From positions 1-51,183 of IMG/VR virus record IMGVR_UViG_3300012942_000058: a stretch of 51,183 bases of DNA; one strand, given 5' to 3'. The position numbers and the translations under genes were made by a program. Shown here piece after piece: positions 4,073 through 50,483 of this stretch (position 1 is its first letter; each line of letters opens with the position of its first letter). This DNA comes from a virus (Duplodnaviria; Caudoviricetes). A model generated the notes under the pieces. The model had not been told where the DNA came from and did not search any database. It saw only the letters and a program-made list of their open reading frames with translations.

Positions 4073-5655
4073 TGGCTGCTCGCGTCGTAGCTCGGGTGCC
4101 GACCGGCACCGCACCCGACCCGAAGGCCGCACCGGCCGACGCACGCGAGCGCGACGACGACCTGAGGGGCGACCCCAGTCAGCGCCATCCGGACCTGGTC
4201 CGCATGAGCGACGACTATCAGGAGATGCGCGACTGCCGCGCCGGAGCGACCACGATCAAGGCCGAGGGGCAGAAGTACCTGCCCATGCCCGACGGATTCC
4301 GCGCCCAGAACGACGGCGGCGCAGGAATGTACGAGTCGTACAAGAAGCGGGCTCAGTTCCCCGACATCGTGTCGCCCACGGTGCTCGGCATGGTGGGCAT
4401 CGTCCACTCGCGCGAGGCGCAGATCGAGGGCCTGGAGGAGGGATCGGCCCTGGAGTACCTGTGGGAGAAGGCCACGCCAGATGGCCTGCCGCTGGAGGTG
4501 CTCCACCGCATGATCACCGAGGAGATCCTGACCCTCGGTCGGGTGGCGCTGTTCGCAGATCCGCCCGCCGAGGGCGGCGAGCCGCTGATCGCGCTGTACA
4601 AGGCCGAGAGCCTGATCAACTGGTCGGACAGCCGCGACTTCTTCGTTCTGGAGGAGTCGTACCGCATCCGCACCGGCTTCAGCTGGGACGACCGCACCCG
4701 CTACCGCGTCCTGCGGCTGGTGGACGATCGCTACGTGGTCGTCGTTCTGGACAAGGACGGCACACCCCAGACCGTGGGGTCGGCCGAGGACACCGAGGAC
4801 CAGGAGGACCGCAGCACGGAGGCATCCCCGGTCGCCCGAGGCGGGCAGGCCCTGGAAGAGATTCCGCTGGTGGTGGCCGGGTCGCGCGACCTGTCCCTGG
4901 AGCCCGACGAGATGCCCCTGATAGGCGTGGCTCGCGCCGCGACGGCGATCTACCGGCTGGACGCCGACTACCGGCACCAGCTGTTCATGGCCGGACAGGA
5001 GACGCTGTTCGTGTCGGGCCTGGACGTCAAGGACGCACCCGACTTTGTCGGTGCTGGCGTGATCGTCTGCCTGCCCGAGAACGCCAGCGCCCAGTATGTC
5101 GGGCCGAGCGGCGAGGGCATCGACTCCCACAAGACCGCGATCGACGACGAGCGCGAGGTGGCTGCGGCCGCAGGGTCGCGGGTGTTCGAGACGGGCCAGA
5201 AGGGTCAAGCCGAGTCCGGGGATGCCCTGAGGATACGGGCGCGCGCTGGCACGGCGACGCTGGTCTCGGTGGCTCTGTCCTCGGCTGCGGCCCTGGAGCG
5301 CATTCTGCGGCACTGCGCCACGATGGTGGGTGCCGACCCGGAGAGCATAGTCGTCACGCCGAACCTGGACTTCGTCGACGCCAAGATGACGCCCGACGAG
5401 GCCGCCAAGCTGATGGAGCTGTGGCTGCAGGGCGTGATCAGCTACGACACCCTGTACGAGAACCTGCAGCGCGGCGAGATCGCCTCCCAGGAGCGCACCG
5501 CCGAAGAGGAGCAGGATCTGGTGGCCCAGGAGCAGACCCAGACCACCGACGACGAGGGTGGCGCGGGCGTGGACGACGAGACCGACGAGGACGCGGAGGG
5601 CGAGGAGGACCCCGAGACCGCAGCCTACTTCTCGACGGACTACCTGGATGCGTAG
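4072..5655 (+). CDS. Portal protein (DUF4055-type)
   Basis: Starts MAARVV at 4072 overlapping the terL stop; 'KYLPMP...YESYKKRAQF', 'YKAESLINW', 'AESGDALRIR'; acidic C-tail; position after terL. Confidence 0.85.
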   Translation: MAARVVARVPTGTAPDPKAAPADARERDDDLRGDPSQRHPDLVRMSDDYQEMRDCRAGATTIKAEGQKYLPMPDGFRAQNDGGAGMYESYKKRAQFPDIVSPTVLGMVGIVHSREAQIEGLEEGSALEYLWEKATPDGLPLEVLHRMITEEILTLGRVALFADPPAEGGEPLIALYKAESLINWSDSRDFFVLEESYRIRTGFSWDDRTRYRVLRLVDDRYVVVVLDKDGTPQTVGSAEDTEDQEDRSTEASPVARGGQALEEIPLVVAGSRDLSLEPDEMPLIGVARAATAIYRLDADYRHQLFMAGQETLFVSGLDVKDAPDFVGAGVIVCLPENASAQYVGPSGEGIDSHKTAIDDEREVAAAAGSRVFETGQKGQAESGDALRIRARAGTATLVSVALSSAAALERILRHCATMVGADPESIVVTPNLDFVDAKMTPDEAAKLMELWLQGVISYDTLYENLQRGEIASQERTAEEEQDLVAQEQTQTTDDEGGAGVDDETDEDAEGEEDPETAAYFSTDYLDA

Positions 5656-6676
5656 GGTCAAGAAGAAGGAGGAGGCGACCCACCTCTCGGGTCGGTCTCT
5701 CGGGGCGCGCGCCGCCTACCAGGAGAGCAAGCACCGCCGCGATGCGGAGGGACGCTACGCCGACAAGCCGGGGGCCGGAGACGATGCACCCAGGAAGGGT
5801 TGGCGTCCGGCTGCCGAGGACGACATCGTTGGTCGCCGGTCGGGCGGAGCGGGCGAGGAGACCGCCGCCGAGAGCCGAGTGCGCCCGGTGGAGAAGATGA
5901 GCGACGAGGAGGCGCAGGGGTCGCTGGAGTGGAAGAACGACCCCGAGCGCTGGGCCGCAGCCGAGGCGGGGGCAGAGGCCAGCACGCACGCTGCCCCCAC
6001 TCTCGGCACGGTGAGCGAGGCCGAGTTCACGCCCGAGCAGAAGCTGGCCGTGGATCGGATGGCCGACCAGCTAGACCAGATGGGCATAACCCACCTGACC
6101 TCGGCCGACAGCTCGGCCGTCAAGCTGTACACCGGCACCTCGTCGGCGTACAAGAACATAAACAAGGCGCTTCGTCGCGCCGACACCTCGAAGCTGAAGC
6201 CAGCCGAGCTGGAGGCGGCGAGGGAGCTGCAGGAGCACATGAAGGCGTCCGTCATGAAGCGGGACGCGGTGTTCTACCGGGGCGTGGAGAAGGTCGGCAA
6301 GTTCGACAAGATGCCGCCGCCCTCGGACTTCGCCGACAACGGATTCCAGTCCACCAGCATGAACTCTCGGTTCTCCGAGAAGTTCAGCGGCGCGACATTC
6401 GACAGTGCCGCGTTCGGCGAGGGCACCACGGGAACCATGTTCAAGATCCGGGTTCCCAAGGGCTCTCACGCCCTCAGCGTGTCGCGCGCCGACAACGTTC
6501 GCTCTGGGCTGGCCGAGTCGGCCGAGGTGCTGCTTCCGCCGGGCACGCGCTATCGCTACGTGTCTCACGAGGTGCAGACTCGGACGGTGCCGGGCTACGG
6601 CAGCGCGCCGGAGCGGAAGTTCCGGGTCAAGGTGATCGAGGTCGAGGTGGTGAGGGCAGATGGCTCGGGCTACTGA
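5648..6676 (+). CDS. ADP-ribosyltransferase 1 (VIP2/C2-like R-S-E clade)
   Basis: 'YT...YKNINKALR', 'VFYRG', 'GFQSTS', 'FKIRVPKG', 'SAEVLLPPG'; N-terminal 'ESKHRRDAEGRY'; ATG at 5648 overlaps the portal end. Confidence 0.85.
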   Translation: MRRVKKKEEATHLSGRSLGARAAYQESKHRRDAEGRYADKPGAGDDAPRKGWRPAAEDDIVGRRSGGAGEETAAESRVRPVEKMSDEEAQGSLEWKNDPERWAAAEAGAEASTHAAPTLGTVSEAEFTPEQKLAVDRMADQLDQMGITHLTSADSSAVKLYTGTSSAYKNINKALRRADTSKLKPAELEAARELQEHMKASVMKRDAVFYRGVEKVGKFDKMPPPSDFADNGFQSTSMNSRFSEKFSGATFDSAAFGEGTTGTMFKIRVPKGSHALSVSRADNVRSGLAESAEVLLPPGTRYRYVSHEVQTRTVPGYGSAPERKFRVKVIEVEVVRADGSGY

Positions 6677-6863
6677 CAAGGAGCGAGGCGCCAGCGGGCG
6701 CTTTCTCGCCGATCCGGACGACGTGGTGTTCCTGGAGCGCGACGAGCGCCAGCGCCGCGTGGCGGCGACCCCGGCCACCGACGACGAGGGCGGGGACGAC
6801 GAGTATGGCGAGGTGAGCGACGAGGAGCTGGCGGAGATGTTCGCCCCCGAGACCCTGGAGTAG
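6660..6863 (+). CDS. Small acidic protein downstream of ART1
   Basis: 67 aa, D/E-rich, overlaps the ART1 stop; 'RGASGRFLADPDDVVFL'. Confidence 0.65.
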   Translation: MARATDKERGASGRFLADPDDVVFLERDERQRRVAATPATDDEGGDDEYGEVSDEELAEMFAPETLE

Positions 6864-6866
6864 GCT

Positions 6867-8669
6867 GTGCAGCACCGCAAGAAGCACCTCGCGGACAAGG
6901 CTGTCGCGGCTCGCGCCAAGTGGGAGTCGTCCAAGCATCCGCGTGGTCCTGGCGGCAAGTTCGTGTCCAAGCCGGGGTCCGAGAAGGCACCGTCGGGTCG
7001 CCACTCGGAGGCGATGAAGGAGAAGGGCAAGACTTCCGGCATCAAGGACGAGGACATCGTCAAGCTGCACGTCGCCCAGAACCCGAAGAAGGCCGGCAGC
7101 AAGTCCGCCGAGGACTTCGCCAAGTACAAGAACGACATGACCGTGGCCGAGTTCAAGGCGGCGGTCGGCAAGGACGCCGCAGGGCACCTTGCGTGGGACA
7201 TCAAGAAGGGCTACATCTCGGTCCATGCGCCGGGGTCGCTGCCCGCAGCCAAGAAGGAGCTGACGAAGGAGAGCTACATCGGCTTCGGGAAGCAGTCCGA
7301 CGTGAAGGGCTCGGACGTGATCAAGCTGCACCCGACCGACGAGGTCGGGAAGATGGTCAACCCCAAGAAGGCCGGTAGCAAGTCCGAGGGCGAGTTCGCC
7401 AAGTACCGCGACGAGATGACCGTGGACGAGTACGTCGCGGCGGTCGGCGACAAGAAGAAGGCGCTGGCCAACATCAAGTGGGACACGGACAAGGGCTTCG
7501 TGTCGGTCCACTCGCCCGAGTCGCTGGAGAGCCTGAGAGCCGGCAAGACGACTGCGCCGAAGTCTCATCTGCCCGAGGGCATCGACGACAGCACTCAGCT
7601 TCTCAACGTCTCCACTGGCGAGGTGAAGACTGTAGCCGAGATGAAGAAGCCTCTTGTTGGCAGTGGCTTCAAGAACGAGACGGTAGAGAAGAGCATCGCC
7701 GCCTCCGTGAAGGAGGGCTCGCTGAAGAAGTACACTGCTCCTAAGGTCGCCGACCTGAAGAGTAGCGACCACCTTGTGCTCCAGACCACTGGGCCGAATC
7801 CCTACAAGGAGGGGTCGCCGGAGTGGATCAAGTACAAGGCATTCGAGCTGCAGCACGGCAAGCCGCACACGCTCGACTCGTATATGGCGACCAAGTCGCT
7901 GGACACGACCCAGAAGAAGGCGGTGCTGCAGACGCTGATCGACGACGGGCACATCAAGCTGGTGACCAAGGAGCAGCTGGCGGCGGTGGCCGCAGCCAAG
8001 GCGGCGTCCCCGTACCCTGTAGTCAAGCAGTCGGCGAAGCCGAAGCTGCCGGACGTGAGCGACGAGCGCTGGGGCAAGGTCCTGAGGTCCGACACTCTGG
8101 AGGACCTGCGCCACAAGGACTCCGGCTACGACCTGATGATGCAGTCGGCCAAGAACATGGGCGCTGTTCGACGCACGACCAGCTCCAGCTCGGCGCTGGC
8201 GAGCTATAAGGGTAGTGGCTACAGCTACATCAACAGCAGCCTGCGCGAGGGCAAGCCGCCGACGAGCCAGGCTCTGGCGCTGGACGCGCTGATGAAGCCG
8301 ACCACGGCAGACGCGATAGTCTACCGGGGTCACAACGTGAAGTACATGAACAACATGCCGCCTCCGCCGGAGTTCGAGGAGCTGGGCTTCAGCTCGGTCT
8401 CGCACAATCCGGCGGTGTCTCAGTCCTTCTCCAAGGGTTCGAACACCATCTTCAGGATAAGGGTGCCGAAGGGCACTCCTGCCCTGCAGATCACGCAGGG
8501 CGGCACGAGCGACGAGGCGCTGAGGAACGAGCTTGGCTACGAGGCCGAGGTGGTCCTGGCGCGCGGCACTCGCTACAAGTACGTCAGCCACGAGACGGTC
8601 GGCGGCTGGAAGATCATAGACGTGATTGCCGTCGGACCGCACGGCGGCGCGGCGAAGAGCGGAGTCTGA
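6867..8669 (+). CDS. ADP-ribosyltransferase 2 with N-terminal HPR motif and three 'NPK' repeat domains
   Basis: C-terminal 'YSYINSSLR', 'IVYRG', 'GFSSVS', 'FRIRVPKG', 'EAEVVLARG'; N-terminal 'WESSKHPRGPGGKF'; internal repeats NPKKAGSKS...MTV...WD..KG(Y/F)(I/V)SV. Confidence 0.85.
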   Translation: MQHRKKHLADKAVAARAKWESSKHPRGPGGKFVSKPGSEKAPSGRHSEAMKEKGKTSGIKDEDIVKLHVAQNPKKAGSKSAEDFAKYKNDMTVAEFKAAVGKDAAGHLAWDIKKGYISVHAPGSLPAAKKELTKESYIGFGKQSDVKGSDVIKLHPTDEVGKMVNPKKAGSKSEGEFAKYRDEMTVDEYVAAVGDKKKALANIKWDTDKGFVSVHSPESLESLRAGKTTAPKSHLPEGIDDSTQLLNVSTGEVKTVAEMKKPLVGSGFKNETVEKSIAASVKEGSLKKYTAPKVADLKSSDHLVLQTTGPNPYKEGSPEWIKYKAFELQHGKPHTLDSYMATKSLDTTQKKAVLQTLIDDGHIKLVTKEQLAAVAAAKAASPYPVVKQSAKPKLPDVSDERWGKVLRSDTLEDLRHKDSGYDLMMQSAKNMGAVRRTTSSSSALASYKGSGYSYINSSLREGKPPTSQALALDALMKPTTADAIVYRGHNVKYMNNMPPPPEFEELGFSSVSHNPAVSQSFSKGSNTIFRIRVPKGTPALQITQGGTSDEALRNELGYEAEVVLARGTRYKYVSHETVGGWKIIDVIAVGPHGGAAKSGV

Positions 8670-8832: not shown

Positions 8833-9146
8833 GCAGTGGTGGCGTTCAGGCGGTTCGCGATGTCGACCGCGAGGCACTCATCGAGGCACTGTCGGGCGGC
8901 GGTGGCGGAGGCTCGGGCCTCACAGACACCCAGCTGCGGGCCTCCCCGGTCCCCGTCAGCGGACCGCTGACCAGCGCGAACCTGACGGCGGTGACGGGCA
9001 CGGCAGCCCAGACTGCCGTGACGACCGATCCGGCCGCTGCGGGACAGACGATGCTGTCCGTCATGCGCGGCATTCTGGCGGAGCTGCAGACGCAGACAGC
9101 TCTACTGAACGACATCAAGACCAACACCGCTGGTGCTGGCGTATAG
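8829..9146 (+). CDS. Hypothetical protein, probably virion-associated
   Basis: ATGA overlap; Gly linker then 'LTDTQLRASPVPVSGPLT'. Confidence 0.6.
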   Translation: MSSGGVQAVRDVDREALIEALSGGGGGGSGLTDTQLRASPVPVSGPLTSANLTAVTGTAAQTAVTTDPAAAGQTMLSVMRGILAELQTQTALLNDIKTNTAGAGV

Positions 9147-9163
9147 TCTCCCATGGTGGGAGC

Positions 9164-9237
9164 TCGGCTGGCAGTGCCGCCGACAACCGCTCGTGCCAGT
9201 GGCCGGGCAAGCAAGAGGAGAGGTGTCAGTGACCCTC
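9164..9237 (+). promoter_or_regulatory. Three tandem bulged CAGUG-loop hairpins in the scaffold leader; the third contains the GTG start
   Basis: tcggc-T-gg-CAGTG-cc-gccga; ctcg-T-gc-CAGTG-gc-cggg; gagg-T-gt-CAGTG-ac-cctc. Confidence 0.75.
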
Positions 9238-10080
9238 AGAGCAGTAGTAGACTCCCTCGACGACATTCCCGAGGGGCTTCGCGACGAGTACGTCGAGCAC
9301 AACGGAAAGTTCTACCTGGACCTGGACGACACTCTGTCGGTCCACACCAGCATCGTTCCGCTGTCGACGGCTCTGGCCAACGCCAAGAAGGAGAAGCAGC
9401 GGGCGCAGAACGACTACAATGCGCTCAGGACCCGCATCGCGGGGCTGCCGGACGACTTCGATGCCGACAAGTACCAGCAGGTGCTAGACGAGCTGGAGAC
9501 GCTGCGTGCGGACCCGAACGGGGACCACGATGCGGAGGCCAAGCTGACCACCCTGCGCGACAAGTACGAGCAGCGTCTGCGCGACGCGGAGGCCAAGCGC
9601 GTGGCTGACCTCGCCGAGAAGGACGGAGTCATCGACTCCCTCGGTGGCGAGCTGGACGGCGCAGCGGCCAAGCGCGGCCTGTCCGACGCACTCGCCAAGG
9701 CAGGCATCGACCCGAAGTTCATGGCTGCTGCTCAGGCGCTCCTGCGCCCGACCGTCAAGGTCCGCAAGAACGAGACGACCGGCGACCGCGAGGCCGTCGT
9801 GGACACCGACCTCGGCGAGGTGACGGTGGAGAAGTACGTCGAGAACTGGGCCAAGTCCGACGAGGGCAAGCCGTTTGTGCTTCCCTCCAAGGGCAGCGGT
9901 GCCCCCGGATCGGGCCACACTGGCCGGACCGAGGTCAATCCGTGGGCCAAGGACACGCTCAACCTCACCGAGCAGGGCCGGGTCATCCAGTCCGATCGGG
10001 CGAAGGCCGAGCGCCTCATGAAGGCTGCGGGCAAGACCGCAGACGAGATCTCTCGGGTCCTGGGCCGCGCAGCGGCCTGA
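9229..10080 (+). CDS. Capsid scaffolding protein
   Basis: GTG at 9229 after AGGAG; 'LRAVVDSLDDIPE...Y...GKFYLDL', coiled coil, 'GSGA', 'NPWAKDTLNLTEQG'; precedes the capsid gene. Confidence 0.8.
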   Translation: MTLRAVVDSLDDIPEGLRDEYVEHNGKFYLDLDDTLSVHTSIVPLSTALANAKKEKQRAQNDYNALRTRIAGLPDDFDADKYQQVLDELETLRADPNGDHDAEAKLTTLRDKYEQRLRDAEAKRVADLAEKDGVIDSLGGELDGAAAKRGLSDALAKAGIDPKFMAAAQALLRPTVKVRKNETTGDREAVVDTDLGEVTVEKYVENWAKSDEGKPFVLPSKGSGAPGSGHTGRTEVNPWAKDTLNLTEQGRVIQSDRAKAERLMKAAGKTADEISRVLGRAAA

Positions 10081-12939: not shown

Positions 12940-13335
12940 ATGAGCGACGCATTCTACTCCGAGATGGCCGACATCGCCGACGAGCTCCTGACGGAGTTCT
13001 CGACCGGCACAGTCGTCCTCGTGCGCCGGACACGCGCCGCCGGAGCAGAGATCTGGACGCCCGGCGCGAGAACCGAGACCCGATACGACTGTGTCGGCGC
13101 GGTCGCGATCCCTGCCGGCAAGACGTTCGTCGGCAGCACCACTGTCGTGGCCAGCGACACCATGGTCGTTCTCTCCCCGCGCTTCGTGCCCGAGGGCGGG
13201 GACTCCCCGGTCGCCCTGGAGCCGACGATGGACGACAGGTTCGTGGTGCGTGGGCGCGAGCGCACCCCGAAGCAGATGCTTCGTGTGCCGGACGACGGCC
13301 CGGTCGTCGTATGGAAGATCGCACTGGAGAGCTGA
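12940..13335 (+). CDS. Head closure / head-tail joining protein
   Basis: 'FYSEMADIADELLTEF'; position in the connector module. Confidence 0.7.
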   Translation: MSDAFYSEMADIADELLTEFSTGTVVLVRRTRAAGAEIWTPGARTETRYDCVGAVAIPAGKTFVGSTTVVASDTMVVLSPRFVPEGGDSPVALEPTMDDRFVVRGRERTPKQMLRVPDDGPVVVWKIALES

Positions 13336-40025: not shown

Positions 40026-40309
40026 CACCGGCCCAGGCCGAGAGACTCGAGATGCTGGCCGAGGAGGCCGCAGAGGTCGTCCAGATGTGCACGAAGATCC
40101 TTCGGCACGGATACAGCAGCTATCATCCGGACGATCCTAAGAGGACGCGGAACGGCGTCCTTCTGGAGAAGGAGCTGGACGAGCTGGACGCGATCCGCAG
40201 AGCGATGCACGAGGAGAGAGATCTCCCTGCCGTGTCGGCCGAGTTCTGGCGCGACGTCTGGCGACGCAAGCTCCGCTGGACGCACCACCAGACGGAGGAG
40301 CATCAGTGA
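40007..40309 (+). CDS. MazG-like nucleotide pyrophosphohydrolase
   Basis: 'LAEEAAEVVQ...KILRHG', 'LEKELDEL'; GGAGG SD. Confidence 0.65.
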   Translation: MSHPSLTPAQAERLEMLAEEAAEVVQMCTKILRHGYSSYHPDDPKRTRNGVLLEKELDELDAIRRAMHEERDLPAVSAEFWRDVWRRKLRWTHHQTEEHQ

Positions 40310-41826
40310 CTCCGGAGATCGTCCTCGGGCCACCGGGAACTGGAAAGACAACCACACTTCTCGGCATGGTCGAGGAGGAGCTGGCGCGCGGCGTCGCTCC
40401 GGACCGCATAGGGTACATCAGCTTCACGCGCAAGGCGACCGAGGAGGCTCGCTCCCGCGCCACGCAGCGCTTCTCCCTGCGCGCCAGCCAGCTGCCGTGG
40501 GTCCGCACCATCCACTCGCTGTGCTTCGCTGCTCTCGGTCTGTCGTCGTCGGAGGTGCTGGAGGGACCGAAGCTGCGCGAGTTCGGCGACTGGATCGGAG
40601 TCCCGGTCACCGGAATGGTCTCCGGCGCGGAAGAGGGGTCGACGTTCGGCTTCGAGACCGGGGACCGCTGCCTGTTCATGGAGAACCTTGCCCGCGTCCG
40701 CATGATTCCTCTGCGTCAGCAGTACGACACCAACTCGGACGATCTCCCGTGGGCGCTGGTCGACCGGGTGTCTCGGGGTCTTGCCGAGTACAAGAAGGCG
40801 CGGGGTCTCGTGGACTTCACCGACATGCTCCAGATGTTCGCCGACTCGGAGTGGAGCGCCCGGCTGGAGGTGCTCTTCGTGGACGAGGCTCAGGACCTGT
40901 CGCTGCTTCAGTGGCGAGTCGTGGAGCGCCTTGCTCGGGGCGCACGCCGCGTCGTGCTGGCCGGAGACGACGACCAGGCAATCTACTCCTGGGCGGGCGC
41001 AGCGACGGAGCACTTCGTCTCCATGCCGGGCCAGGCAAGGACGCTGGAGCGCTCCTGGCGCGTGCCCTCGGCCGTTCAGCCCACGGCGCTACGCATCCTC
41101 GCTGGTGTTCGTCAGCGGCGCGACAAGGTCTGGAGGCCGCGAGAGGGCAGCGCGGGCGTGGTCTCTCGGGTCCAGTCGCTGGACGAGGTGGACTTTGCCT
41201 CCGGAGAGGAGACGCTGGTGCTCTCCCGCAACGCCTGCTTCCTGCGGGACGATGCCATGCCTCTTCTGCGCTCCGAGGGTGTGCTGTACGACTTTCGCGG
41301 CGCGACGTCCGTGCGTCAGTCGCTGGTCGAGGCCATCCTCGACTGGGAGACTCTGCGCCGAGGCGAGCGCATCTCGATCAAGCAGGCCGAGCGAGTGTAC
41401 CAGCAGCTGCGTGTCGGAGAGGGTGTAGCCCGAGGACACAAGAAGCTACCCGCCTGGACCGATCGAGACGAGGAGGTGGACATTCGCGACTTGAGGGGAC
41501 GCGGTGGTCTCCTGACTGACGCCATCTGGCACGAGGCGATGGACCGCATCGACCCGAGCGACCGAGCCTACATGGTCAAGGCCCTACGCCGAGGCGACCG
41601 GCTGACGCGTCGGCCGCTCGTGCGTCTGTCCACCATCCACGGCTCCAAGGGCGGCGAGGCTCCTCATGTGGTGCTGATTCGGGACGTGGCGTGGCGCACC
41701 TACCGAGAGAGCCTGGACGCTCCCGAAGACGAGTCGCGCGTCTGGTACGTGGCTGCGACCAGAGCCCAGGAGCGACTGACCATCGTTGCTCCGCAGACGC
41801 GCTCCGAGAGAGCCTTCGACATCTGA
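40306..41826 (+). CDS. UvrD/Rep-family SF1 helicase
   Basis: 'GPPGTGKTT', 'RTIHS', 'VDEAQD', 'AGDDDQAIY', 'STIHGSKGGE', 'YVAATRA'. Confidence 0.92.
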   Translation: MTPEIVLGPPGTGKTTTLLGMVEEELARGVAPDRIGYISFTRKATEEARSRATQRFSLRASQLPWVRTIHSLCFAALGLSSSEVLEGPKLREFGDWIGVPVTGMVSGAEEGSTFGFETGDRCLFMENLARVRMIPLRQQYDTNSDDLPWALVDRVSRGLAEYKKARGLVDFTDMLQMFADSEWSARLEVLFVDEAQDLSLLQWRVVERLARGARRVVLAGDDDQAIYSWAGAATEHFVSMPGQARTLERSWRVPSAVQPTALRILAGVRQRRDKVWRPREGSAGVVSRVQSLDEVDFASGEETLVLSRNACFLRDDAMPLLRSEGVLYDFRGATSVRQSLVEAILDWETLRRGERISIKQAERVYQQLRVGEGVARGHKKLPAWTDRDEEVDIRDLRGRGGLLTDAIWHEAMDRIDPSDRAYMVKALRRGDRLTRRPLVRLSTIHGSKGGEAPHVVLIRDVAWRTYRESLDAPEDESRVWYVAATRAQERLTIVAPQTRSERAFDI

Positions 41827-41905: not shown

Positions 41906-42574
41906 TTGGCATGCGTGGTCGTAACCAGAAACGGAGAGGGATCGGTGTGGAAGTTCTCCACGCTGAGGGAGGCACGCCTCCATCCCATTCCGCAGATGGA
42001 CGACGTGTATGCCGAGTCCGCCGATCAGCTTGTGGCGCAGTACGGAAGAGAGCACATCGACGGCCTCCTGAGGCTGTTCGAGGGGCGCGACAGGTCCCGT
42101 CTTGTCGACGCCATCGAGACGTGGAGGGCCTCCAGACCCTCCGCGACGCTCGCTCCGGAGGCGCGTGGGCTGATCTGGGATCGGCTGGTGCGTGCTGCCG
42201 CGTCGCCACCAGCCGATCCCGCGGACATCGTTCGCATCACGAGAGAGGATCGGGCTGCTCGGGAGGGAAGGGTTCTGAGGTCCTTCTCCGCGAGCACCCG
42301 ACCCCTGGACCCGGCTGACATGCAGCCATCAAAAGGAAGCAACATGACCAAGCGTAGCCGCATCGCCGACACGTCGACGATCTCCATCACCACCGAGGAA
42401 GGCAAGAATCCGAAGCGCGAGGGCACGCCCTCGCACGAGCGATTCGCCCTCTACAAGGACGGCATGACCGTGAAGCAGGCCAAGGAGGCCGGTGTTCGCG
42501 CTGCCGACATCAGCTACGACTCGGAGAAGGGCTTCATCTCCCTGACCGAGGCCGAGGAGACCGCTGCCGAGTAG
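41906..42574 (+). CDS. Hypothetical protein with C-terminal 'NPK' domain; likely in-frame internal start at 42344
   Basis: TTG after GGAG (start uncertain); AAAGGAAG SD before ATG 42344; 'NPKREGTPSHERFALYKDGMTV...YDSEKGFISL'. Confidence 0.65.
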   Translation: MACVVVTRNGEGSVWKFSTLREARLHPIPQMDDVYAESADQLVAQYGREHIDGLLRLFEGRDRSRLVDAIETWRASRPSATLAPEARGLIWDRLVRAAASPPADPADIVRITREDRAAREGRVLRSFSASTRPLDPADMQPSKGSNMTKRSRIADTSTISITTEEGKNPKREGTPSHERFALYKDGMTVKQAKEAGVRAADISYDSEKGFISLTEAEETAAE

Positions 42575-42641: not shown

Positions 42642-42716
42642 GCGGGCGTAGCTCAGTGGTAGAGCATCACGCTGCCAGCGTGACTGTCGTCGGTTCGATC
42701 CCGACCGCCCGCTCCA
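42642..42716 (+). tRNA. tRNA-Gly(GCC) with encoded CCA
   Basis: Acceptor GCGGGCG/CGCCCGC, U73, D arm GCTC/GAGC, anticodon stem TCACG/CGTGA with loop CT-GCC-AG, T arm GTCGG-TTCGATC-CCGAC. Confidence 0.95.
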
Positions 42717-47349: not shown

Positions 47350-48948
47350 ATGACCACGAAGAAGTTCTTTCCCTCCCCCGAGCAGCAGGCGTTTCTGGAC
47401 TGGATACGCGACGGCTCTGGCTCCTGCGTCCTGGAGGCAGTTGCCGGCGCAGGCAAGACGACAACTCTTGTGGAGGGCGTCAAGCTGATGAGCGGCTCGG
47501 TCTTCCTCGGTGCCTACAACAAGAAGATGGGCGACGAGCTGAAGAGCCGCATCGCCGGCATGCAGGGCAAGATTGCGGGCACCTTTCACTCCGCAGGCTT
47601 CCGGGCGCTGGCTCGCTCCGTGTCCGAGCTGAAGGGCTCCGACGGCAAGGTCCGCTCCGACGCCATCGACGACAAGAAGGTCCGCACCATAGCGGAGGAC
47701 ATGCTGGTCGGGACGGCCGACGAGCACACCGAGGGCCTGATACCCGCGATCTGCCAGCTGGTGAGTCTCGCCAAGCAGACCGGCTTCCTGGTGCGCGGCC
47801 TCGTGGACGAGGACCGACCGAGCTACTGGGCCGAGCTCGTCTCTCGCCACGACGTGGACGAGCGTCTCCCCGAGGACTATCCCGTCTCCCAGCTGTGCGC
47901 TCTGGCGGCTCGCGCCCTCCGCGCATCCAACCGCAAGCGCGACACCATCGACTTCGACGACATGGTCTATCTGCCGCTGCTGCTGAACCTTCGGATGTTC
48001 CGCAACGACTGGGTACTGATCGACGAGGCGCAGGACACCAACGCGGTGCGCCGCGAGCTTGCTGCTCGCATGCTCCGGCCGGGCGGGCGTCTGGTCGCAG
48101 TCGGCGACCCCCATCAGGCCATCTACGGCTTCACCGGGGCCGACAACCGCTCTCTGGACATGATCCGCGAGCGGTTCCGCGCCACCACCCTGCGCCTCTC
48201 CGTCAGCTGGCGGTGCCCGCGCTCCGTAGTCGCCGTGGCCCGCGAGTACGTGGGGCACATTCGCCCAGCTTCGACTGCTGCGGTCGGGGAGACCGCGCAC
48301 ATGACCTACACCGGGATGCTGGCTCGCGTCTCCCCCGGAGACGCTGTCCTCTGCCGGTTCAATGCTCCGCTCGTGGAGCTGTGCTTCCGCCTCATCCGCG
48401 AAGGCAAGCCTGCCAAGATCGAGGGACGCGCCATCGGCGAGGGCCTGATTGCTCTGGTCGGTCGCTGGAAGGTGAAGACTCTGGACGCTCTCGAGGGTCG
48501 CCTGCAGAAGTGGAATGACCGCGAGCGGGCCAAGATCGAGGGAGCCGCCAAGAAGGACGACGCCAAGATGGCGCGTCACGAGGACAAGTACGCAACCATC
48601 CTGGTGCTGCTGGAGCGCGCCCGCGAGCAGAAGATGACGACCGTCTCCGAGATGGAGACCATGATCCGCTCCATGTTTGCGGACGACGCCTCGTCGCCGA
48701 ATCTTGTGGTCCTGGCGTCGGTGCACAAGAGCAAGGGGCTGGAGTGGCCGTCTGTCTATCTTCTGGGCCGGGGCGACATCATGCCCTCGCCGCGCGCAAC
48801 GCAGGAGTGGCAGAAGGAGCAGGAGATCAACCTGTGCTACGTTGCGGTGACCCGCGCGCAGGAGCGTCTCGTGGATGTGGACATGCCTCGTTCCGGAGAG
48901 ACTGGGCAGGCGAAGAAGAGCGAAGAGAGCAAGGAGACAGCAGAATGA
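47350..48948 (+). CDS. Second UvrD-like SF1 helicase
   Basis: 'AVAGAGKTT', 'TFHS', 'IDEAQD', 'VGDPHQAIYGF.GAD', 'SVHKSKGLEW', 'YVAVTRA'. Confidence 0.92.
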   Translation: MTTKKFFPSPEQQAFLDWIRDGSGSCVLEAVAGAGKTTTLVEGVKLMSGSVFLGAYNKKMGDELKSRIAGMQGKIAGTFHSAGFRALARSVSELKGSDGKVRSDAIDDKKVRTIAEDMLVGTADEHTEGLIPAICQLVSLAKQTGFLVRGLVDEDRPSYWAELVSRHDVDERLPEDYPVSQLCALAARALRASNRKRDTIDFDDMVYLPLLLNLRMFRNDWVLIDEAQDTNAVRRELAARMLRPGGRLVAVGDPHQAIYGFTGADNRSLDMIRERFRATTLRLSVSWRCPRSVVAVAREYVGHIRPASTAAVGETAHMTYTGMLARVSPGDAVLCRFNAPLVELCFRLIREGKPAKIEGRAIGEGLIALVGRWKVKTLDALEGRLQKWNDRERAKIEGAAKKDDAKMARHEDKYATILVLLERAREQKMTTVSEMETMIRSMFADDASSPNLVVLASVHKSKGLEWPSVYLLGRGDIMPSPRATQEWQKEQEINLCYVAVTRAQERLVDVDMPRSGETGQAKKSEESKETAE

Positions 48949-49925: not shown

Positions 49926-50006
49926 CGTGACCTGTCTGGACAAGGACTCGGACCTCCGGCGCGGGCAGGGCTAGTCCGGGCGGCGCGGGCAGGCTATGGT
50001 TTGGAC

Positions 50007-50483
50007 ATGAACACATTCCTGCCCTACGAGTCCTTTGCCCACTCCGTCGCCTGCCTGGACCGTGCTCGTCTCGGCAAGCAGAGGCTGGAGTGCGCCCAGA
50101 TACTGGCCGCGCTTCTTCCTCACGCAGGCATGCCCTCTGGCTGGCGCAGCCATCCGGCCACTCTCATGTGGGCCGGGTACGAGTCCGCGCTGAGTCTGTA
50201 CCAGACCATGTGCTGCCGGGAGTGGGCGGCGCGCGGCTACCAGCAGACCACCGTGCCGCCCTACGGGGACGCGTGGCAGCTGCTGGCGTGGGCGGAGGGA
50301 CGCGGGCTCGCGGCGGACGCCAGAGACGCCCCTACTCCTCCCTGGCTCGGAGACGAGCGACTGCATCTCAGCCACCAGCGAGCGCTGATGGCCAAGGACC
50401 CCGAGCACTACCGCGCATTTGGCTGGCGCGTGGTGCCTGGCATCGACTACTGGTGGCCAACAAAGGAGACAGAGACAGCATGA
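50007..50483 (+). CDS. Pyrimidine-dimer DNA glycosylase-like protein (DenV/MSMEG_6728-like)
   Basis: 'MNTFLPY..F..S...LD..RLGKQR.E..QI', 'W.SHPA..MW.GYE', 'PPWLGD...H.SH...L..KDP..Y'. Confidence 0.85.
   Translation: MNTFLPYESFAHSVACLDRARLGKQRLECAQILAALLPHAGMPSGWRSHPATLMWAGYESALSLYQTMCCREWAARGYQQTTVPPYGDAWQLLAWAEGRGLAADARDAPTPPWLGDERLHLSHQRALMAKDPEHYRAFGWRVVPGIDYWWPTKETETA

Follow-up and report, generated by a model that had tools for sequence, protein, structure and literature searches.

The virus contig IMGVR_UViG_3300012942_000058 (51,183 bases), which was analysed over its entire record and is referred to here as the window, runs from terminase, head, tail and lysis genes to helicase, primase, UvrD and base-modification genes. 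It raises the question of why an ADP-ribosyltransferase (ART) encoded in the head block should carry several copies of a small domain, called NPK in what follows, of which another copy lies close to the base-modification genes. The answer proposed here, held tentatively and with a probability that we put somewhat below even, is that the NPK domain reads the phage's own sugar-modified DNA and holds a head-packaged, arginine-type ART on the incoming genome, the binding itself being predicted.

ART2 and its repeat units

ART2 (6867-8669, + strand, 600 aa) is composed of a basic N-terminal motif, four NPK-family units and a C-terminal ADP-ribosyltransferase. The four motifs from which the preliminary description had recognized a repeated domain in ART2, as well as a distant copy of it, are all present, at 7080, 7359, 7797 and 42407. 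In a phmmer comparison over 767 six-frame pieces of the window, the two canonical copies, placed by sequence match and model at 7050-7229 and 7311-7514 (both + strand), match each other with an E of 7e-15, and the free copy matches them with E values of 7e-7 and 6e-6, respectively, while the third repeat gave no pairwise match. The latter reaches 3.7% alone against the family profile and 46% (E 2e-4, reversed control 0.24%) as a profile of seven members. Because its AlphaFold model displays the strand-helix-helix-helix-strand order of copies 1 and 2, this NPY-type repeat (7761-7967, + strand), previously described as degenerate and kept in related ART fusions, is considered a probable divergent NPK copy. 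The earlier count of three copies holds, but it missed a fourth, shorter remnant (7587-7733, + strand, seen by profile and model) without the NPK loop and helix 1. Its kinship with NPK is weak (14% profile match), and longer relatives contain several copies of this degenerate unit. AlphaFold resolves the N-terminal part of ART2 (12 sequences, pLDDT 81, pTM 0.39) into four separate units, which at this pTM are predicted to fold independently; the four-unit model found no Foldseek match at E<=0.001.

Concerning the catalytic part, the ART domain (8133-8588, + strand) matches PF03496 with an E of 6e-12 and 45.7 bits, against a cut-off of 23.4, and contains R487, S510-x-S512 and E559-x-E561, with R487, S510, S512 and E561 invariant across 8 sequences. 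The ExE loop of ARTs marks arginine acceptors. ART2 has the motifs of an R-S-E ART, and by its E559-x-E561 loop it would be of the Arg type, an activity predicted from the sequence. The paralogous ART1 (5558-6676, + strand) shows S-x-E at the catalytic loop and has no NPK copies.

ART2 is located in the head block, between the terminase/DUF4055 genes and the major capsid gene and 5' of the presumed scaffold, a slot that its relatives also occupy among their head genes; the names 'portal', for the DUF4055 gene, and 'scaffold', for 9133-10080, are putative and were given by gene position. In the available parts of PMC9503650 and PMC5512222, ARTs encoded at head loci are generally read as packaged and injected, and T4 Alt, the Alt/VIP2 ARTs and the MuF/polyvalent effectors resemble ART2 in having an R-S-E ART among head genes. 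ART2 differs from Alt/VIP2 in the array of NPK units that makes up its N-terminal part, and from the MuF effectors in having no MuF domain, MuF being a separate gene of the window at 13311. An NPK-type domain is not named in those parts of the two papers.

The N-terminus of ART2 carries the motif ESSKHPRGPGGKF (6924-6962, + strand), a putative head-targeting signal. A HKR/HPR..G.F motif recurs N-terminally in related head-locus proteins, both with and without NPK. In the window, similar motifs are found in ART2, in ART1 and possibly in the small gene between them (6660-6863). Given that ART1 shares such a motif and lacks NPK, packaging of ART2 probably depends on the basic N-terminal motif, with NPK adding an address.

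How widespread the fusion is was followed in 44 ART loci. All 11 full-length close ARTs (about 8 distinct) carry two NPK copies together with copy 3, and the same scaffold gene follows the fusion in 10 of these 11 loci, whereas none of the nine full-length distant ARTs has NPK, so that the NPK-ART fusion was seen in one phage lineage only. Three further records, which bear on whether such fusions are limited to modifying phages, are 36-54% complete, and a search of viral contigs with full-length ART2 as query found no loci. As to the link between the ART and DNA modification that was proposed beforehand, ART2 carries the copies, its neighbour ART1 has none, and the fusion was observed in this lineage alone. 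Upstream of the fusion lies a gene for a multi-domain protein of variable make-up, in which NPK is combined with NUDIX, ART, ParB-like or HExxH regions in mixes that differ among the three loci observed (L023:526-3273, L042:9141-10268 and L056:7453-10044).

The free copy and its gene

The copy outside ART2 (42362-42550, + strand, by sequence match and model) had been taken for an early gene of its own at 42344-42574. The NPK copy is indeed there, but the 76-aa frame does not stand alone, as it is nested in a gene of 222 aa that starts at TTG 41906 (41906-42574, + strand) and comprises an N-terminal domain, a linker and the C-terminal NPK domain. The short form would start from an internal Shine-Dalgarno site and ATG 42344 (42332-42346, + strand). 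The N-terminal domain (about 41912-42265, ~120 aa) is conserved and unnamed, with the pattern VVTRxG..W.F..HP..Q..D..PP.D and no Pfam match; it was found in 35 proteins of the assembled sets, a few of them duplicates, and NPK follows in all.

At least 100 open codons precede the best nearby ATG in 17 of 66 non-redundant free NPK frames, and in 15 of these 17 that internal ATG has a Shine-Dalgarno duplex of -4 kcal or better, compared with 44% of 783 windows from neighbouring genes that served as controls; the corresponding p of 2e-6 is overstated because the rows are related. In the window, both starts, 41906 and 42344, have a Shine-Dalgarno score of about -6, and therefore the gene likely gives a long as well as a short product, as judged from these start sites. 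A promoter scan found no site 5' of the NPK gene. The nested design recurs in these 15 of 17 long NPK genes (from L001-L174), where the internal Shine-Dalgarno site and its ATG sit immediately ahead of the linker although the N-terminal domains differ. The linkers before free copies are basic, with a median of 22% K/R in 104 proteins, and the domain itself has a median charge of +2. The short form of the window is acidic (pI 5.4), which counts against DNA reading.

The surroundings agree with what had been reported for the free copy, namely its closeness to a tRNA and a base-modification gene. A tRNA-Gly(GCC) (42642-42716, + strand) lies between the NPK gene and HMUDK_hel (PF18723, 42819-43682, + strand, E 3e-41), and the TAGT glycosyltransferase (PF20691, 50480-51183, + strand) is cut by the end of the record. 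In several relatives there is no room for a tRNA in that slot. The region also contains two UvrD-type helicases (40306-41826 and 47350-48948) and a pyrimidine-dimer glycosylase (50001-50483) directly 5' of TAGT. No dUMP hydroxymethylase was seen in the 51,183-base record, which stops inside TAGT.

Fold and family of the NPK domain

The NPK domain, of ~60 residues, is modelled by AF2 as beta-alpha-alpha-alpha-beta with a pLDDT of 95.9. The structural comparison suggested by the preliminary description gave this confident model, but no Foldseek match in the PDB at E<=0.001. The proposed winged-helix likeness is borne out weakly, by the model: the best of the weak Foldseek/VIA rows are winged-helix-type regions with Z<=6.4 and E>0.3, and the top VIA Z of 6.4 is under the typical background best of the tool, 7-8. 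As in the winged helices of PriA, Fur, MecI and Z-alpha, or those of RRE and NPRL2, there is a three-helix bundle followed by a C-terminal strand. NPK differs from them in its long loop before helix 1 and in the absence of the two-stranded wing, the beta-hairpin expected after helix 3, since the model has just one N-terminal and one C-terminal strand (E62-65). The J-DNA-binding domain of JBP1 is not among the best 50 VIA rows listed.

It should be noted that these rows mix DNA-binding domains (PriA, Fur, Z-alpha) with peptide-binding, RiPP/RRE-type domains, and a winged-helix-like fold does not in itself demonstrate DNA binding. NPK might instead be a protein adaptor of the RRE kind, an explanation that we consider quite unlikely; its partner would be the modification enzyme, the replisome or a target in the host, and ART2 would be recruited to that partner. 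This explanation draws on the RiPP-enzyme domains in VIA rows 6, 9, 15, 23, 26 and 36, on the high rank of NPRL2/MetAP2-type winged helices, on the modest domain charge given above and on the subtype changing along with the adjoining enzyme (see below). However, the subtype stays unchanged between the TAGT and the inositol cassettes, the loop and linkers are basic, and the fusions to ART, NUDIX, DUF2786 and PHD suit a DNA address better. Moreover, the model has no three-stranded sheet of the RRE type, and no RiPP enzymes occur among the common neighbours scanned.

Sequence conservation was obtained from 236 domains. N17, P18, K19, G22, F29, Y32, T37 and D54 are each conserved at 90% or more, followed by D50, S23 and R28; within helix 3, D50 is kept in 81%, D54 in 96% and W/Y53 in 82%. 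The conserved aspartates may be structural.

The profile search proposed in the preliminary description, carried out with six sequences, recovered an unnamed family of 3,577 clusters at E<=0.001. Short proteins account for 62 of the 150 matches listed; another 27 share the N-terminal extension, 43 are mid-size proteins of other kinds, 11 are ART fusions (including that of the window) and 7 other long proteins. The earlier remark that no named family could be assigned to the domain is confirmed: Pfam and PHROG scans gave no match over the domain, and over 111 members they yielded no family, with just two stray matches near E 0.004-0.01. PDB sequence searches returned designed repeat proteins only (E>0.03), and there the NPK profile matched nothing up to E 10; the ESM Atlas gave only unnamed viral clusters, and the eukaryote-type copy had no named match. 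No description of the domain turned up in the literature searched on phage base modification, ARTs and JBP1, or in the available portions of PMC8989533, PMC11946847 and PMC13697223, although Iyer et al. 2013 or supplements may name it.

The sole match in an annotated phage is gp18 of phiJL001, a phage of Alphaproteobacteria (tblastn E 3e-8). It is a true family member (model TM 0.94), annotated only as gp18, that adjoins, upstream, the HMUDK_hel, glucosyltransferase and dUMP-hydroxymethylase genes but has another N-terminal domain. This single NPK match in the phiJL001 record means that no ART fusion is seen there. A divergent subtype had no tblastn match in annotated phages, and one search pattern detected NPK at 2 loci in prokaryote genomes.

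Fusion partners comprise NUDIX and DUF2786/DUF7168; ParB-like and HExxH regions were recognized only by eye. Fusions to DUF2786 and DUF7168 were observed at L320:9129-10034 and L324:4006-4986. Three proteins, one of them with an SF1 helicase, combine tandem NPK copies with PHD fingers and are inferred to be eukaryotic, and two near-complete relatives hold 7 NPK copies each. The link to modification that the preliminary description drew for the ART is hence not specific for ARTs, since the domain is also fused to NUDIX, ParB-like, HExxH, DUF2786 and PHD proteins. A resemblance of the C-terminal region of one protein with two copies (P0020) to HMUDK_hel was set aside, the match being weak (21%, E 0.001).

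Modification genes and the reading of phage DNA

The co-occurrence of NPK with modification genes, also raised beforehand, proved to be strong for TAGT, HMUDK_hel and dUMP-hydroxymethylase-type genes. In a census of 34 distinct free copies (loci L001-L060), 27 have a pyrimidine-modification gene beside them within the locus. TAGT is in reach of 19 copies (one match being weak), an inositol cassette of 2, a dCMP-type synthase homolog of 2, and only HMUDK_hel or a dUMP-type synthase of 4; the remaining 7 have nothing in reach, and 3 of these have such genes elsewhere on the contig. For 19 of the 34, no more than 600 nt separate the end of the copy from TAGT or HMUDK_hel. The dUMP versus dCMP synthase call was based on the N177-equivalent residue, a criterion given in the accessible text of PMC13326640. 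In the reverse direction, with many loci incomplete, a strong NPK match was found in 8 of 80 HMUDK_hel-anchored loci and in 1 of 80 marine helicase loci. The notion that NPK is missing from the remaining hmU phages in the helicase set was rejected, as divergent homologs fill the same slot.

Two observations argue that the tie to modification goes beyond adjacency. First, in marine TAGT phages without an adjacent copy, weak members located elsewhere, far from TAGT, keep a DxxYD helix (4 of 5 records; 5 of 5 sequences listed). Second, four NPK carriers (G003, G004, G014 and G015) have HMUDK_hel and no TAGT match and encode an inositol-phosphate synthase, accompanied by kinase genes and by genes of the ADDT-like and phosphatase-like types. 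The idea that NPK requires TAGT was abandoned for this reason, the inositol cassette being present instead.

The cassette was observed at L323:4206-9329 (G004), L321:4956-10312 (G003), L044, L055 and L073, with genes for a myo-inositol-1-phosphate synthase, an ADDT-like transferase and a dual-specificity phosphatase, as well as hmdU-kinase-like and dUMP-hydroxymethylase-type genes. Its gene content predicts an inositol-modified thymidine, which would again be a hydroxyl-rich base. The literature searched showed no inositol-thymidine, and Iyer et al. 2013 or supplements may name the cassette. One NPK-ART fusion type occurs in both TAGT and inositol genomes, which counts against the proposed reading. 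So does G011 (96% complete), which has two NPK copies and a dCMP-type synthase homolog and no TAGT or HMUDK_hel match. In L327:7042-11535 (G011) and L011 the dCMP-type thymidylate-synthase homolog was observed with a dTMP-kinase-like gene, and G011 also has a C5 methylase; by these genes, both phages probably modify cytosine.

Covariation of the domain with the modifying enzymes was followed in 61 loci kept out of 80 helicase-anchored ones, after removal of duplicates and of loci in which the helicase was incomplete or no HMUDK_hel followed downstream. The kept loci divide into NPK with TAGT_A (21), DYG with TAGT_B (15), DYG with GT4 (4), KWD with kinase (6), kinase without a copy (6) and others (9). 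In these counts, which are biased by the derivation of the TAGT_A profile and the helicase query from NPK loci, NPK goes with the TAGT_A clade in 21 of 21 loci and never occurs without it, while 21 of 23 TAGT_A loci have NPK; DYG goes with the second TAGT clade or a GT4-like enzyme (19/19), and the Arg-rich KWD subtype with an hmdU kinase (6/6). NPK, DYG and KWD prove homologous by hhalign (94.6-97.7%, with less than 2% for reversed controls) and diverge most in helix 3, which is Asp/aromatic in NPK and Arg-rich in the kinase-linked subtype. DYG accompanies glycosyltransferases yet is devoid of the two aspartates, a further point against the proposed reading. A helicase tree of 70 rows counts 11 changes for both traits; of the independent pairs, however, no more than 3 (starred) fall on well-supported branches, and these agree (p 0.25). 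NPK and TAGT are adjacent and may therefore move as one block, and adjacency together with the profile bias could produce part of the pattern. The covariation lends real, though indirect, support to the reading of modified bases.

The same data bear on the main competing explanation, rather unlikely though by no means negligible, in which NPK binds DNA blind to its modification, as a coat of the linker-histone/HU type, tethers ART2 to any DNA and is tied to the modification genes by shared inheritance. The K/A/P-rich linker joined to a small globular domain would fit such a protein, as would the 5-7 copies per genome with unrelated partners and the tandem copies in PHD-finger proteins; one subtype occurs with TAGT, inositol and dCMP-type cassettes, and the independent pairs are too few. 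Blind binding nevertheless leaves unexplained the replacement of the Asp/aromatic helix 3 by an Arg-rich one where the kinase cassette is present, the DxxYD helix of distant, non-adjacent marine members and the near-restriction of the family to base-modifying phages.

If NPK does read sugar-modified DNA, the system could be pictured as follows. The phage would make hydroxymethyluracil, which TAGT would glycosylate to a base-J-like base, and ART2, packaged via its N-terminal motif, would be ejected along with the DNA. The NPK(R/K)xGS loop and R28 would hold on to the DNA backbone, leaving D50, W/Y53 and D54 of helix 3 to contact sugar hydroxyls. Several NPK copies would provide avidity, and the ART would modify arginines of proteins arriving on phage DNA, host RNA polymerase and modification-dependent nucleases being candidate targets. 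The short free form, made from the internal start and encoded at the front of the modification genes, would coat new phage DNA, and the long form would contribute a second domain.

The opposite preference is very unlikely in our estimate: NPK would bind unmodified host DNA or the hmU intermediate and be excluded by the mature base, with the ART steered to the host chromosome or with the free form shielding new DNA until it is glycosylated. The subtype would likewise follow the chemistry, the NPK gene stands at the head of the modification genes, and T4 Alc offers an analogy, as a protein acting on host DNA that is unmodified. However, positive contacts to the sugar are what the conserved Asp and aromatic residues would suit, with JBP1 as the precedent (available parts of PMC3141245).

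According to the same parts of PMC3141245, the J-DNA-binding domain of JBP1 from kinetoplastids is a helix-turn-helix variant in which one aspartate, Asp525, decides the specificity for base J, setting the preference for glucosyl-hmU. By prediction, the phage cassette yields a comparable base, and NPK keeps the helix-3 aspartates at the frequencies given above. The likeness is an analogy only, as the JBP1 domain is a helical bouquet of 160 residues and NPK is 60 residues of beta-alpha-alpha-alpha-beta. TF1 of SPO1 is another small phage DNA-binding protein, and it prefers hmU DNA (PMC3969353, in the portions available). It differs from NPK in its HU/type II fold. We know of no case in which TF1 occurs as a repeat fused to enzymes.

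An extension of the proposed reading, which we judge unlikely as a whole, would be a reader code in which helix 3 is retuned for each base chemistry and the domain serves as a self-DNA address that delivers the virion ART and is reused on other effectors, eukaryote-type PHD proteins having borrowed the same module. In detail, such a code would pair an Asp/aromatic helix 3 with glucosyl- or inositol-hmU and an Arg-rich one with kinase-made phospho forms.

The NPK family is unnamed in the libraries and the literature searched. Phage base hypermodification has mostly been treated as a shield against host nucleases, and to our knowledge phage-side readers of modified bases are barely known, TF1 being an example. 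With subtypes that sort with the modifying enzymes, it becomes testable whether phages read their own marks to aim injected enzymes. A by-product of the search for NPK is the cassette for which attachment of inositol to thymidine is predicted. If NPK reads as proposed, it would supply small probes for glucosyl-hmU and related bases; should the reader code hold as well, it would amount to an epigenetic reader code of viral origin, from which affinity reagents for base J-like marks could readily be drawn.
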